42,956 nt of DNA from a virus (Duplodnaviria; Heunggongvirae; Uroviricota; Caudoviricetes). The DNA lies in IMG/VR virus record IMGVR_UViG_2721755643_000001; one strand, 5' to 3'. Below the pieces are notes generated by a model. It was not told the origin of the DNA. It searched no databases and was given only the letters and a program-made list of their open reading frames with translations. This document shows positions 3,826-19,191 of this stretch, piece by piece; position 1 is the stretch's first letter; each line of letters begins with the position of its first letter. The position numbers were made by a program, and so were the translations under genes.

Positions 3826-4014
3826 TCACGAGGACTGAAGTTTCTCGCAATTAAAATTTATCAGTTTTACTTTCTGCTCTCTGGAAACGCCTGCTTCTTT
3901 TTCCCCTGAGAGCATTTTTTCGCATTCTGATTTCGTTAGTTTTGTCTTTGAGTATCTTGTCCAGCTGGCAGGAGATCCACCTTCCTTTTCAATAGTGGCT
4001 GTAATTTTATACAT
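3826..4014 (-). CDS. Hypothetical small phage protein
   Basis: Track ORF 3826..4038; internal start at MYKITAT has a strong GGAGGTG Shine-Dalgarno 5 nt upstream. Confidence 0.5.
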   Translation of the reverse strand: MYKITATIEKEGGSPASWTRYSKTKLTKSECEKMLSGEKEAGVSREQKVKLINFNCEKLQSS

Positions 4015-4064
4015 GAACACCTCCATTAATATTTTCAAAAACCGTGTCCAAAATGCACTTGGTT

Positions 4065-8074: not shown

Positions 8075-8623
8075 TTATTTTAAAGAAAGTAATTGTTCCA
8101 CAGTCATATTTTTAATTGCGCCCCGGTTAACAAGAGTCCATCCCTGTTTTTCCAGATAAAACCGGAAAGTCTCCAGGGTACAGACCAGTGCGCCATCAGG
8201 AACGGTTTCGGTGAATTCGACATTGCCGAATTTGTCGAAGTGAACAACCAGAGTGCGACCATCACCCGGAATCATCTTGTCAGCAGGTGGGGTGTTATTC
8301 TGGCGCAGTTCGGCCTCCATGCGGTCGAACTCAGCAATGTAGGCTTCCTTGAATGCGGCGGCTTTTTTGCCAGTGAAGCCCATCACCAGGAAAACGAAGC
8401 CGTTTTTGGTGATTTGGTACATTGGGAGTTTGCGCCCGGTTGAGTCGGTGTATTCGCTCGCCTCAAAATTGAGGGCAGTAAATTTATCTGAGCATTCAAT
8501 ATTTGCGATGGCACGTAACACATTGTCGTGTCGTTTGTGGAAGAACTCTGCAACCGCAACAGACGTAGTGACAGCGCGACCGTTTTCTACGGTTACACAA
8601 GGGTGAGAAAGGGTAGTAGCCAT
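8075..8623 (-). CDS. Phage regulatory protein, Rha family
   Basis: Motifs FHKRHDNVLRAI and MYQITKNGFVFLVMGFTGKKAAAFKEAYIAEFDRME typical of Rha; start set at Met99 of track ORF 8075..8917 because the upstream part of that ORF contains a terminator hairpin. Confidence 0.75.
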   Translation of the reverse strand: MATTLSHPCVTVENGRAVTTSVAVAEFFHKRHDNVLRAIANIECSDKFTALNFEASEYTDSTGRKLPMYQITKNGFVFLVMGFTGKKAAAFKEAYIAEFDRMEAELRQNNTPPADKMIPGDGRTLVVHFDKFGNVEFTETVPDGALVCTLETFRFYLEKQGWTLVNRGAIKNMTVEQLLSLK

Positions 8624-8789
8624 GATGGCAGCCTCCGCGATGAATTTGATTAACTCACCACCGGAGGTAGCAATCTCATGGGTGGTGAGACGTACAGGGT
8701 TGCTACAACCGGTCATCACGGAACCCGGCCAGTCTTGCGACTGCCCCGCACGCCCCACCATAATTTGAATGTGGCTGTGCATTACGCAT

Positions 8790-8817
8790 AAAAAAACCGC
8801 CTGAGCGCGGTTATGCG
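8790..8817 (-). terminator. Rho-independent terminator-like hairpin upstream of the Rha gene
   Basis: Minus strand reads AACCGC-GCTCAG-GCGGTT followed by a T7 run; flanked by a CGCATA/TATGCG outer repeat. Confidence 0.55.
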
Positions 8818-8939
8818 CCGTGAATGACTTCGGGGTAGCAATCCCGGCACCCGTTTTATGAGGTGCAGGTGCACTATAATTCCACCCGTTCTGGTTTTCA
8901 ATAGCTACATTCAACATTTTCTCTTTCCTTTCATCACCG

Positions 8940-9362: not shown

Positions 9363-9518
9363 TCACTCACCTGAGTTTCTTTCCAGCCAGCGACGCGCGC
9401 CAGCTTCGGTTTTAAACGTTTTGCTTTTGGTATAAGTCATGGCGGTGAACGTTCCATCCTGGTTGGGGAACACGCCACATACCAGAGATTCGTTGTTGCC
9501 AAGATCGATAGTATTCAT
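9363..9518 (-). CDS. Hypothetical small early-left protein (51 aa), first gene after the leftward promoter
   Basis: Not in the track; ATG preceded by GAGG; its stop sits inside the Shine-Dalgarno of the next ORF; peptide MNTIDLGNNESLVCGVFPNQDGTFTAMTYTKSKTFKTEAGARRWLERNSGE. Confidence 0.5.
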   Translation of the reverse strand: MNTIDLGNNESLVCGVFPNQDGTFTAMTYTKSKTFKTEAGARRWLERNSGE

Positions 9519-9689
9519 GTTGACCTCATTTCCCCTTAACGCCGGGTGGCGGAACTAAAACCTGCTGCACTGCAAAATTTGAACCCTGCCGTCATGTTCT
9601 TACGCCTCGGGCTGGCTACTTAACCCCTGACCACTGCCTGGTAACTCGAAGTATTGCCCTGCGTTCTGTGGGGCGGGGTGGGTTGATGG

Positions 9690-9750
9690 ATACAATCTAC
9701 AAATTAAAATTTAATTGGTCAATATATTTATTATTAAATTTGTAATTGCG
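9690..9750. promoter_or_regulatory. OL-like operator / leftward early promoter region
   Basis: AT-rich; the 15-mer ATTAAATTTGTAATT (9733-9747) recurs exactly at 10975-10989 in the repressor-cro intergenic region; inverted TACAAAT / ATTTGTA half-sites. Confidence 0.5.
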
Positions 9751-9790
9751 AACGATTGCATTAGTCCCAAAATGGGACTATCATGCAGTT

Positions 9791-10093
9791 ATGAAGATCA
9801 TCTCAGTTAAAACACTCAGGGATTTTTGGGCGGAGAATCCCGATGCAGAACAACCGCTAAGGGCATGGGTGGATGAGGCAGCAAAAGCTGACTGGAAAAG
9901 CCCGGCAGACATTAAGGCACAATACCGAACGGCTAGTATATTGAAAAGCCGGCGTGTGGTATTCAACATAAAAGGTAATCATTACCGTTTAATTGTTGCA
10001 ATTGCGTATCAGCGAGGATGGGTATTTGTTAAATTCATCGGAAGCCACAAGGAATACGATGCCATTGATGCTGATACCATCGAACTGGAGTAA
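9791..10093 (+). CDS. higB: Type II toxin, HigB/RelE-like mRNA interferase
   Basis: About 100 aa, MKIISVKTLRDFW...YRLIVAIAYQRGWVFVKFIGSHKEYD resembles HigB; toxin-first order, 2-nt gap to an HTH antitoxin. Confidence 0.75.
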   Translation: MKIISVKTLRDFWAENPDAEQPLRAWVDEAAKADWKSPADIKAQYRTASILKSRRVVFNIKGNHYRLIVAIAYQRGWVFVKFIGSHKEYDAIDADTIELE

Positions 10094-10095
10094 GC

Positions 10096-10455
10096 ATGAA
10101 CATCAAACCTATTCGTACAGAGCAAGATTATGAAGCCGCGTTGCGTGCTGTTGAGCCTATGTTCGACAATGAACCGGAAATTAACACGCCTGAGGGGGAT
10201 TTCTTTGAGGTGATGTGTTTGCTAATAGAGGAATATGAAAAAAAACATTATCCCATTGAGCCACCATCCCCAATTGAAGCTATAAGATTTCGCATGGAAC
10301 AGCAGGGGCTGACCGTGAAAGATTTGGAACCCGCAATTGGGAAAAAAAATCGGGTTTACGAGGTGTTGAATGGCACCAGAAGCCTTACGTTACCAATGAT
10401 TCGCCGTCTTCATAATCAATTTGGTATCCCCTTGGAAAGCTTGGTGGGATTATAA
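10096..10455 (+). CDS. higA: Type II antitoxin, HigA-like (XRE-type HTH)
   Basis: 119 aa immediately downstream of the toxin; C-terminal HTH-like segment GLTVKDLEPAIGKKNRVYEVLNG. Confidence 0.75.
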   Translation: MNIKPIRTEQDYEAALRAVEPMFDNEPEINTPEGDFFEVMCLLIEEYEKKHYPIEPPSPIEAIRFRMEQQGLTVKDLEPAIGKKNRVYEVLNGTRSLTLPMIRRLHNQFGIPLESLVGL

Positions 10456-10501
10456 AATCTGCTAGTCATTTGCCTGATACTCGTTCCAGAAAAGGAACGC
10501 A

Positions 10502-10894
10502 TCAGGCAGTTTTGTTTTTCTGCCGCAGTAACTCTTCAAGTTTTCGTTTATAGAAATCGCGTTTTTGCTCCATATCTCGAATGATCTGCTCTGCGTCGCT
10601 TTGAGGTAACTCATCTAAAAGCGATATGATTTTTCGTTGCTGTTCTGTAAGTTGCGGTTGGTTGTCATTAGTGGATACAGCCATCTTATCGCCGAGAGCT
10701 TCTTCTTCCATAAAGAACCAATGGACGGGATGTTGTGAGAGCTCTGCTAATTTTTCCAGTTTATCCATTCTTGGCATCACGCCTTTCAACCAACCTTGCA
10801 CGGATTGGGGTTTTACACCAAGACGTCTTCCCAGCTCTGACTGGTTTATATTCAATTCCTGCAACACCTGCTGAAGGCGTTTTACAAAGATCAT
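10502..10894 (-). CDS. Prophage repressor (CI-like, HTH_XRE)
   Basis: HTH QSELGRRLGVKPQSVQGWLKG; divergent from the Cro-like gene; ATG start with AGGGGTGG Shine-Dalgarno chosen over upstream GTG codons in the track ORF. Confidence 0.8.
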   Translation of the reverse strand: MIFVKRLQQVLQELNINQSELGRRLGVKPQSVQGWLKGVMPRMDKLEKLAELSQHPVHWFFMEEEALGDKMAVSTNDNQPQLTEQQRKIISLLDELPQSDAEQIIRDMEQKRDFYKRKLEELLRQKNKTA

Positions 10895-10939: not shown

Positions 10940-11020
10940 ATAAGTGGCATTACAAATAGAAGTTGAAATTTAAAATTAAATTTGTAATTATCGATACCAT
11001 CGTAAAGTTTGGAGGGAAAC
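10940..11020. promoter_or_regulatory. OR-like operator region with divergent promoters
   Basis: Intergenic between divergent repressor and Cro-like genes; ATTACAAAT (10949-10957) and ATTTGTAAT (10980-10988) are inverted half-sites; 15-mer shared with 9733-9747. Confidence 0.55.
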
Positions 11021-11293
11021 ATGCAAAAAAGTACTCAAATAAAAATCCTGTCGATAATGAGCCAATCAGAATTAGGGCGTCGTCTTGGTAAAACTCCACA
11101 AACCATAAGTGGGTGGTTTAAAAAACGAGTTCCTGCGGAGGAGGTTATTCCTGCATGTGAGGCGCTTGACTGGGGAGTGACTCCGCATGAATTGCGCCCT
11201 GATAAATACCCTAACCCGACCGACGGTTTACCTGTTGGATGTAAGGTTAACAGATCAAATGAACCGGAGTTGATTCATGAAAATCAGGCATGA
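11021..11293 (+). CDS. Cro-like HTH regulator (YdaS-like position)
   Basis: HTH QSELGRRLGKTPQTISGW; GGAGGG Shine-Dalgarno before the ATG at 11021; first rightward gene. Confidence 0.75.
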   Translation: MQKSTQIKILSIMSQSELGRRLGKTPQTISGWFKKRVPAEEVIPACEALDWGVTPHELRPDKYPNPTDGLPVGCKVNRSNEPELIHENQA

Positions 11294-11702
11294 ACACATC
11301 CGCATGGCGATGAATACCTGGGCGCATCCGGACGGTGAGAAAGTACCGGCTGCAGAGATTACCAAAGCGTATTTTGAACTGGGAATGACGTTTCCGGAGC
11401 TGTACGACGATTCACATCCGGAAGCCCTGGCTCGCAATACTCAGAAAATTTTCCGCTGGGTGGAGAAAGACACCCCTGATGCAGTTGAAAAAATTCAGGC
11501 GTTGTTACCAGCGATCGAAAAGGCAATGCCACCTTTGCTGGTGGCCAGAATGCGCAGCCACAGTTCAGCTTATTTTCGGGAGCTGGTGGAGACGCGGGAA
11601 CGACTGGTGAGAGATGCTGATGATTTTGTCGCAGTGGCGATCGCCGGTTTCAACCAGATGAATCGTGGTGGCCCGGCGGGAAATGCCGTGGCTGTACATT
11701 GA
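11277..11702 (+). CDS. cII-like / YdaT-family regulatory protein (tentative)
   Basis: 141-aa ORF overlapping the Cro-like stop; position equals cII in lambda or ydaT in Rac; family is inference. Confidence 0.55.
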   Translation: MKIRHEHIRMAMNTWAHPDGEKVPAAEITKAYFELGMTFPELYDDSHPEALARNTQKIFRWVEKDTPDAVEKIQALLPAIEKAMPPLLVARMRSHSSAYFRELVETRERLVRDADDFVAVAIAGFNQMNRGGPAGNAVAVH

Positions 11703-16632: not shown

Positions 16633-16917
16633 CCTGGTCTGAAGCATTCACAACGGTAGGAATCGCACTGGCGGTGGTGGTGTATTCGATTTGCCGCTGG
16701 GGATAAAAACGGTTTGCGGGAAAAGGAGAGTTAAGTAGAATTGCAGCGGGTGCTTGAGGCTATCTGTCTCAGGCATGAACACCAAAAGGCAGATAGAGAA
16801 AAGCCCCAGTTAACATTACGCGTCCGGCAAGACGCTTAACATTAATCTGAGGCTCAATCTATGAACGGCAAATCTAGGTTAGCCTCTTACGTGCCGAAAG
16901 GCAAGGAGAAGCAGGCT

Positions 16918-17073
16918 ATGAAGCAGCAAAAGGCGATGTTAGTCGCCCTGATCGTCATCTGTATTACCGTCATTGTGACGGCACTGGTAACGAGGAAAGA
17001 CCTCTGCGAGGTACGAATCCGAACCGGCCAGACGGAGGTCGCTGTCTTCACAGCTTACGAACCTGAGGAGTAA
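16918..17073 (+). CDS. Hok/Gef-family type I toxin
   Basis: 51 aa; MKQQKAMLVALIVICITVIVTALVTRKDLCEVRIRTGQTEVAVFTAYE parallels Hok (TM helix, conserved RK.LCE.R and EVA.F.AYE); AAGGAGA Shine-Dalgarno. Confidence 0.75.
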   Translation: MKQQKAMLVALIVICITVIVTALVTRKDLCEVRIRTGQTEVAVFTAYEPEE

Positions 17074-18883: not shown

Positions 18884-18960
18884 GGCCCTTTAGCTCAGTT
18901 GGTCAGAGCGAGCGACTCATAATCGCCAGGTCGCTGGTTCAAGTCCAGCAAGGGCCACCA
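18884..18960 (+). tRNA. tRNA with CAT anticodon (Ile2-like, ileX/ileZ type)
   Basis: Cloverleaf with 7-bp acceptor GGCCCTT/AAGGGCC, anticodon loop CTCATAA, T-arm GCTGG-TTCAAGT-CCAGC, encoded CCA; close to my recollection of E. coli ileX. Confidence 0.8.
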
Positions 18961-18961
18961 A

Positions 18962-19038
18962 CCACCACTAGCTCATCCGGATAGAGCATCAACCTTCTAA
19001 GTTGACGGTGCGAGGTTCGAGTCCTCGGTGGTGGGCCA
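18962..19038 (+). tRNA. tRNA-Arg (anticodon TCT)
   Basis: Acceptor CCACCAC/GTGGTGG, D-arm GCTC...GAGC, anticodon stem TCAAC/GTTGA with loop CTTCTAA, T-arm CGAGG-TTCGAGT-CCTCG, encoded CCA. Confidence 0.85.
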
Positions 19039-19040
19039 GC

Positions 19041-19116
<76 letters not shown>

Positions 19117-19119
19117 TAT

Positions 19120-19191
<72 letters not shown>

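Follow-up and report, generated by a model that had tools for sequence, protein, structure and literature searches.

The window, that is, the whole 42,956-nucleotide (nt) stretch of the Caudoviricetes record IMGVR_UViG_2721755643_000001, carries a gene pair, higBA, beside the repressor gene of an E. coli lambdoid prophage. Two adjacent open reading frames (ORFs) on the plus strand, at 9791-10093 and 10096-10455, encode proteins of 100 and 119 amino acids (aa), exactly where the initial annotation had placed them. Together they are predicted to form a complete and functional type II toxin–antitoxin operon of the PF09907 HigB / Xre-type helix-turn-helix HigA family, a reading to which we assign a probability of about 0.85. 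This estimate refers to the identity of the locus as a regular member of the PF09907 HigBA family and to its mode of action, not to its biological role. The operon and its predicted control elements are as follows.

9756-9761, plus strand: predicted higBA -35 box TTGCAT; the TTG is kept at that register in most of 40 distinct relatives
9762-9780: predicted HigA operator, the perfect palindrome TAGTCCCA-AAA-TGGGACTA, which fills the 17-nt spacer and is unique in the window
9779-9784, plus strand: predicted higBA -10 box TATCAT, 6 nt before the higB ATG
9791-10093, plus strand: higB, with ATG at 9791 and stop codon at 10091-10093, encoding the 100-aa PF09907 HigB-family toxin
10096-10455, plus strand: higA, with ATG at 10096 and stop codon at 10453-10455, encoding 119 aa with an N-terminal toxin-binding half and a C-terminal HTH_3 domain
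10471-10519, plus strand: hairpin followed by UUUUGUUUUU, likely the intrinsic higBA terminator, overlapping the repressor stop codon at 10502-10504

The genes are arranged toxin-first and are separated by a gap of 2 nt between the higB stop codon and the higA ATG. The Shine-Dalgarno sequence of higA (GGAG, 10087-10090) lies inside the 3' end of higB, 5 nt before the higA start codon. HigB matches the complete Pfam profile PF09907 (HigB_toxin) with E=5e-33 and 113.6 bits (cut-off 27), and is also matched by PHROG 5734 at 1e-45. In HigA, the HTH_3 domain occupies residues 63-115 and the protein terminates four residues later. Sequence searches connect both proteins with solved structures, HigB with the crystallized E. 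coli/Shigella HigB (5IFG_A and 5YCL_B, E=3e-7) and HigA, over residues 6-112, with its partner in the same entries (5IFG_B and 5YCL_A, E=2e-9). The best-scoring defense-library profiles for both proteins are those of PD-lambda-2: PADLOC PD-Lambda-2_A matches HigB over its full length (E=1.5e-40), and PD-Lambda-2_B matches HigA (E=1.3e-42) only at profile positions 1-119 of 402. Neither protein was matched by NCBIfam. Because the pair is recognized by PF09907, PHROG, PADLOC, HTH_3 and the solved structures, it does not consist of chance ORFs. These results bear out the proposal of the initial annotation that a toxin-first HigB/HigA pair is present, which it had tied to a match with RelE/HigB profiles; the PF09907 match, the helix-turn-helix antitoxin and the homology to the solved HigBA of E. 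coli K-12 all agree with it. The toxin family is already known to public annotation, as RefSeq labels the toxin.

The AlphaFold2 model of HigB is of moderate confidence (mean predicted local distance difference test score, pLDDT, 72). Its top match in the PDB is 5IFG_A, with a template modeling (TM) score of 0.66, and its fold matches 5IFG_A, 6KML and 5YCL_B at TM 0.62-0.66, in agreement with a toxin of the RelE/BECR type. In an alignment of 70 family members including K-12 HigB, nine columns are invariant, and all nine are kept in the HigB of the window (V57, F58, N59, G62, N63, R66, H86, Y89 and D90), the catalytic roles of these residues being putative. An alternative upstream start of higB, TTG at 9746 (115 aa), was ruled out, since homologs and profiles begin at M1 of the 100-aa form.

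As judged from sequence comparison, neither gene is damaged, and purifying selection acts on both. The ratio of non-synonymous to synonymous substitution rates (dN/dS) is 0.03-0.19 for higB and about 0.02 for higA. Between prophage variants that are ~96% identical, higB shows 7 synonymous to 2 non-synonymous changes and higA 11 to 1. Of 80 genome loci, which range over Enterobacterales, Alphaproteobacteria and Betaproteobacteria, nearly all have higB followed by higA. The HigB homologs are 100 aa long and all belong to PF09907, whereas the 120 best HigA homologs measure 113-134 aa, nearly all of them 118-126, and come from Escherichia, Salmonella, Citrobacter, Kluyvera, Serratia, Erwinia, Providencia and other genera.

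These lengths bear directly on the idea that the pair is a decaying, non-functional remnant of one of two three-gene systems, PD-lambda-2 or HigBAC, from which the peptidase or chaperone parts have been lost. Such an origin would account for HigA spanning only the first 119 of the 402 positions of the PD-Lambda-2_B profile, and three-gene relatives do occupy the same position in Shiga toxin (Stx) phages. However, the uniform size of the homologs across many genera and the dN/dS values of 0.02-0.19 effectively refute a truncated PD-lambda-2 or HigBAC. The conserved promoter and operator also speak against it, and the 46 bp between higA and the repressor gene hold a terminator rather than gene debris. 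We therefore find the remnant explanation hardly credible.

The control region was compared in an alignment of the 130 nt that precede higB in genomic contexts unrelated to one another. The palindrome AGTCCCA-N3-TGGGACT is kept in relatives from Enterobacterales and Betaproteobacteria whose flanks are unrelated, and its core begins 27-29 nt before the start codon in 20 loci. At the -10 box, the three positions of the register TA...T are kept in 33, 37 and 38 of 40 relatives. The operon is thus predicted to have its own autoregulated sigma-70-type promoter, with the palindrome located in the spacer. Another promoter proposed further upstream by the promoter scan (9683-9710) was set aside, as it is not conserved in other contexts, unlike the palindrome-containing promoter.

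Since the ATG follows the predicted -10 box by only 6 nt, the higB mRNA made from this promoter is probably leaderless. The relatives show a corresponding division. In 30 of the 40, the -10 box is 6-8 nt from the start codon, and this interval is non-conserved and contains no Shine-Dalgarno sequence; among the relatives with a gap of 10-24 nt, 7 of 10 carry a Shine-Dalgarno sequence of the AAGGA type. No report of a leaderless higB was found in the literature.

At the other end of the operon, the 91-nt stretch 10440-10530 holding the hairpin has a minimum free energy of -32.4 kcal/mol (z = -4.0 versus shuffled sequences). A simple terminator scan found nothing here, and the hairpin was seen by folding. 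It is present only in the prophage context: the contexts diverge directly after the higA stop codon, and elsewhere no hairpin lies downstream.

The pair is embedded in the immunity region of the prophage, whose other features are listed below. OL and PL denote the leftward operator and promoter, and OR the rightward operator.

9363-9518, minus strand: ydfA-like gene (DUF1391), the first of the leftward early operon (PF07151, E=1.6e-29; ydfA in the identical RefSeq locus)
9694-9747: OL/PL region, with TACAAAT at 9698-9704 and ATTTGTA at 9738-9744
9722-9694, minus strand: candidate leftward promoter from the promoter scan, with -35 box TTGACC (9722-9717), 17-nt spacer and -10 box TAGATT (9699-9694), overlapping the OL boxes
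10502-10894, minus strand: gene for a DicA-like repressor with a helix-turn-helix (HTH_3, 6e-9) and no peptidase domain, convergent with higBA
10950-10987: OR, formed by the inverted pair TTACAAAT ... ATTTGTAA, with the repressor gene on one side and the cro-like gene on the other
11021-11293, plus strand: YdaS-like gene (cro analog)
11277-11702, plus strand: YdaT-like gene (cII analog)

The YdaS-like and YdaT-like genes are recognized by the Pfam families PF15943 and PF06254, and in prophages of this type YdaS and YdaT are the analogs of Cro and CII (PMC8630535). The NCBIfam DicA subfamily matches the repressor at 2.7e-13, which is under its cut-off. The heptamer TACAAAT occurs four times in the window (~5 expected at random), and all four copies fall in OL and OR, where they form two inverted pairs (9698/9738 and 10951/10980). 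Longer similarity surrounds the boxes, with the repeats D1/D2 and I2/I8 common to both regions, and the OL boxes are conserved among prophage variants. On this sequence evidence, the two inverted TACAAAT pairs are OL and OR, and they bracket higBA together with the repressor gene. To the left, the genes from the integrase through ydfC, ydfB and ydfA are directed leftward, followed by higB and higA directed rightward and the repressor gene directed leftward. To the right of the repressor, the YdaS-like and YdaT-like genes and then the replication genes all point rightward. The distance from the higA stop codon to the convergent repressor gene is 46 bp.

In terms of sequence layout, higBA is therefore located at the position equivalent to rexAB of phage lambda, between OL/PL and the 3' end of the repressor gene, and on the strand opposite to the repressor. 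Both points had been anticipated by the initial annotation, and the OL and OR boxes and the opposed gene directions (higBA plus, repressor minus) agree with them. The phages Tritos and vB_EcoS-689R5 share the left arm (ydfABC-dicF-dicB) with the window and have different repressors ~200 bp from ydfA, with nothing between ydfA/OL and the repressor gene. As the position is empty in these phages, higBA is cargo there. Moreover, its opposite strand and its own predicted promoter and terminator indicate that, unlike rexAB, it is not carried along on the transcript of the repressor.

The junction between OL and the higBA promoter raises the question of how far the pair is connected to the lysogenic switch. 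In 12 of 14 chromosomal relatives from Enterobacterales, a second palindrome is found ~30 bp upstream of the first, and the prophage versions are without it. In the window, the exact place of this second HigA palindrome, at -57 from the ATG, is taken by the right box of OL (TTAAATTTGTAAT, 9734-9746), with the higBA -35 box 10 bp further downstream. The coincidence may mean that the prophage repressor influences higBA, or it may only mark the left end of the acquired DNA. A stronger form of this view is that the pair is wired into the prophage switch, so that the repressor bound at the right half-site of OL, or convergent transcription from the repressor promoter, or both, would modulate higBA, and toxin release would report on the lysogenic state. 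The place of the OL right box and the overlap of the higBA terminator with the repressor stop codon are consistent with this. Nevertheless, the evidence is purely positional, and higBA already has a complete promoter and a complete proximal HigA operator without the OL box, so we consider such wiring quite unlikely. We give the same low standing to the evolutionary counterpart of this idea, that HigBA has been absorbed by the switch, with an OL site replacing the second HigA operator, the terminator and the tail of the repressor gene fused, and the toxin translated from a leaderless mRNA. If this were true, the balance of toxin and antitoxin would be tied to the state of the lysogenic switch, and the pair could act against cells whose immunity region is lost or replaced, or abort heteroimmune lambdoid infection without a sensor of the chaperone type.

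The distribution of the pair was surveyed in 5,426 complete E. coli genomes. The segment containing the repressor and OR is present in 147 of them, at least 80% of the segment 9600-10960 is carried by 147 genomes, and higBA at 95% identity or more is likewise found in 147. Among the 5,426 genomes, no empty site with the same repressor was found; all 147 repressor copies are accompanied by higBA (147/147). Many of the hits listed belong to serogroups O26, O103, O111, O121 and O45. Six E. coli genomes, among them that of an O121 strain, match the window at 100% identity over the higBA region, and in an identical genome the element is a lambdoid prophage of the Rac/Qin type riddled with insertion sequences (IS). 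In the O26 strain RM10386, the cassette resides in a different lambdoid prophage with different flanks, and the left-side homology with other prophages and phages ends near 9680-9700, at the edge of OL. This placement and this end of homology indicate that the pair moves as part of the immunity cassette. On comparative evidence, a single immunity cassette found in Rac/Qin-like lambdoid prophages carries higBA as fixed cargo.

Beyond the E. coli chromosomes, more than 20 IMG/VR contigs have the same arrangement. The module was not found in 50,697 phage records, where the nucleotide search returned only the shared left arm, and the protein search of phages gave only relatives at 41% identity or less. 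Close relatives (~80% nucleotide identity) are located on plasmids of 90-97 kb with neighbor genes resembling those of phage-plasmids.

A further set of IMG/VR contigs (L108, 5233-6360, and L119-L127, for example L121, 5232-6201) contains a HigA 94% identical to that of the window, with HigB lost and an unrelated pair of a PF05015 HigB-like protein and a helix-turn-helix protein in place of higB. Their neighbor genes match E. coli plasmids of 90-97 kb, probably phage-plasmids. In nine of these contigs, HigA is cut to its 66-aa N-terminal, toxin-binding half, which corresponds to phrog_10398. The HigB-less HigA could be recombination debris or a free-standing decoy that neutralizes toxin.

A close, experimentally studied system is HigB/HigA of E. 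coli K-12 (YgjN/YgjM; 5IFG, 6KML; PMC2814082), which likewise comprises a PF09907 toxin encoded first in the operon and an antitoxin whose N-terminal half binds the toxin and whose C-terminal part is a helix-turn-helix. Its promoter has a palindromic operator, as is predicted for the window. K-12 HigB cleaves only translated mRNA; HigA both neutralizes the toxin and represses the promoter, and Lon is required for activation (PMC2814082). A 2025 review places PF09907 among the ribosome-dependent families (PMC11980606). The two loci differ in that K-12 higBA is chromosomal, whereas the pair in the window resides in a prophage. In addition, K-12 higBA has an untranslated leader of ~30 nt and the palindrome TTGCCA..TGGCAA, in place of the predicted leaderless start and AGTCCCA-N3-TGGGACT of the window.

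By analogy with K-12 HigBA and with HigBAC of E. coli NT1F31, HigB would cleave mRNA in the ribosomal A site and so stop translation. Judging from characterized relatives, the N-terminal half of HigA would bind HigB, and a HigA dimer would repress the promoter at the palindrome. The combination of a leaderless toxin message and an antitoxin led by a Shine-Dalgarno sequence may ensure that HigA outnumbers HigB even though the toxin gene comes first. HigB would be freed once HigA ceases to be replenished or is degraded by turnover of the Lon type.

A toxin that is not a ribosome-dependent mRNA endonuclease has also to be considered, either an RNase III inhibitor like SehA or, as in PD-lambda-2, a pair with toxin and antitoxin roles swapped. 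SehA belongs to PF09907 and is 40% identical to K-12 HigB, and a preprint describes it as devoid of endonuclease activity and as binding RNase III (10.1101/2024.07.09.602740). The swapped arrangement is suggested by the high scores of the window proteins on the PD-Lambda-2 A and B profiles. Against these possibilities, R66, H86, Y89 and D90 are kept in the window, are invariant in the family and are common to K-12 HigB, and the HigB proteins of K-12 and NT1F31 both shut down translation. The SehA result comes from a single preprint, and the toxic PD-lambda-2B contains a C-terminal ImmA/IrrE peptidase that the 119-aa HigA of the window lacks completely. A different target or swapped roles thus appear very unlikely, and cleavage of translated mRNA by HigB is the preferred mode of action.

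Two validated defense systems are related to the pair. HigBAC of E. coli NT1F31 is located downstream of cI, where lambda has rexAB, and aborts infection by lambda-vir and Bas25 when the lambda tail protein gpV draws the SecB-like chaperone of the system away; its HigB shuts down translation (bioRxiv 10.1101/2024.02.24.581848). It resembles the locus of the window in combining a PF09907 HigB with a HigA-type antitoxin in the variable position beside a prophage repressor. In contrast, HigA of HigBAC carries a chaperone-addiction extension of ~96 aa and is followed by a third gene for the SecB-like protein, and both are absent from the window. Moreover, HigBAC is on the same strand as cI, whereas the pair described here is opposite to its repressor and has its own predicted promoter. 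PD-lambda-2 is a validated three-part defense system in which B is toxic and a third gene, C (PF14350), is needed (PMC9519451). Its B protein is a helix-turn-helix fused to the C-terminal ImmA/IrrE peptidase (PF06114), for which HigA of the window gives no match, and no PF14350 gene lies beside the pair, only 46 bp before the repressor gene. As the defining parts are absent from its sequence, the locus is neither PD-lambda-2 nor HigBAC.

A relative of HigBAC was found in the Stx phage BP-4795 (L131, 3501-4842), where a PF09907 HigB, a 218-aa HigA with a C-terminal extension (ORF21) and a protein matching the SecB-like profile PD-T4-9_C (ORF20) are encoded directly after cI and on its strand. 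H-19B has this layout as well. Over the shared parts, these proteins are 41% (HigB) and 43% (HigA) identical to those of the window. HigB-family matches occur also in H-19B, ST2-8624 and many Stx1a phages. The three genes of this type are described in GenBank as hypothetical protein or transcriptional regulator or are unannotated, and RefSeq calls the first a HigB-family toxin. By its sequence, the BP-4795-type locus is a toxin–antitoxin–chaperone system of the HigBAC type in the true rexAB position of Shiga toxin phages.

The position itself has other known occupants. Like rexAB of lambda, the paaR2-paaA2-parE2 genes of CP-933P, a prophage with the same YdaS/YdaT type of switch, are cargo between the repressor gene and OL/PL. 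Both are expressed from PRM on one transcript with the repressor, as a part of the switch, whereas the pair in the window is antiparallel to the repressor and predicted to be autoregulated; the toxin families are unrelated (ParE; RexAB). In CP-933P, paaA2-parE2 stabilizes a mini-F plasmid (PMC8630535). The statement of the initial annotation that such modules often serve in abortive infection or prophage stabilization is in line with these published cases, HigBAC (10.1101/2024.02.24.581848) for the former and paaA2-parE2 (PMC8630535) for the latter.

For the biological role of higBA, these comparisons suggest abortive infection or exclusion, the part played by rexAB and HigBAC at this position, in which the pair would be expressed in the lysogen and act against superinfecting phages. 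We hold this tentatively, at slightly less than even odds. The trigger of HigBAC cannot apply, because the pair has neither the chaperone nor the HigA extension; defense, if real, would respond to some other signal with no chaperone sensor involved, a shutdown of host gene expression being one candidate.

The main alternative, an equally conventional role, is stabilization. The pair would then be an addiction module that acts by post-segregational killing, penalizing loss of the prophage or loss or replacement of its immunity cassette, with no anti-phage function. Its inseparability from the repressor in 147/147 genomes fits this role, as do the purifying selection on the pair within a heavily degraded prophage, the close relatives on plasmids of 90-97 kb resembling phage-plasmids, where stabilization is the classic role, and the analogous action of paaA2-parE2. 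On the other hand, chromosomal prophages are rarely lost by excision, and the nearest validated relatives at the same genomic position defend; the two roles are not mutually exclusive. We regard a pure addiction role as somewhat unlikely.

Several points count against the reading of higBA as a functional operon acting in exclusion. Identity to the experimentally studied K-12 pair is only 28% for HigB and 34% for HigA. The higBA -35 box agrees with the consensus at 3 of 6 positions, and the transcription start is a prediction only. The two validated defense systems each depend on a third part that the pair does not have (the SecB-like sensor of HigBAC, PD-lambda-2C), and a defense role is therefore not automatically transferable. 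In PD-lambda-2, the toxic component is B and not the HigB-like A (PMC9519451), and for SehA, a PF09907 protein, inhibition of RNase III rather than mRNA cleavage is reported (preprint 10.1101/2024.07.09.602740). A literature search by RefSeq accessions found no paper on the pair or its close (>70% identical) subfamily. Finally, the many IS elements in the prophage of the identical RefSeq genome suggest that selection may favor retention of the pair and not defense.

Our analysis adds to the earlier description the predicted leaderless promoter with the operator in its spacer, the strict linkage of the pair to one immunity type, and the juxtaposition of OL and the higBA promoter. Exclusion and defense genes are known to reside beside the repressor in lambdoid prophages, and a minimal two-gene HigBA is now added to the occupants of that position. 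If the pair defends, it would show how a HigB system there can do without the chaperone sensor of HigBAC. If it stabilizes, it would help to account for the persistence of degraded prophages of that immunity type. As predicted here, a leaderless toxin mRNA together with an operator in the promoter spacer would be a simple answer to the need for antitoxin excess in a toxin-first operon.

Other loci of the prophage were also noted. At 3826-4038 of the window, the small RNA RalA (Rfam RF02694, 204 bits, plus strand, 3830-4008) and a small ralR-like ORF of the minus strand, to which it is antisense, form a second locus of the toxin–antitoxin type, as in Rac. A third is formed by the sok antisense RNA (RF01794, 112 bits, 16748-16923), which adjoins a hok-like ORF (MKQQKAMLVALIV...) ending at 17073. 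In the O26 strain RM10386, the prophage with the same cassette contains a ParD/ParE-family pair in its nin-like region (L136, 21562-22124). In the leftward operon, a 280-aa ORF (8075-8917, minus strand) combines Ash (PF10554) and Rha (PF09669) domains; the C4 antisense RNA (8678-8765) and the isrK small RNA (8790-8866) both have matches that overlap the 5' portion of this ORF. This sequence arrangement suggests an antirepressor unit of the P1/P7 type under antisense control. Finally, four tRNA genes are clustered at 18884-19190, in the late-regulatory region of the prophage.

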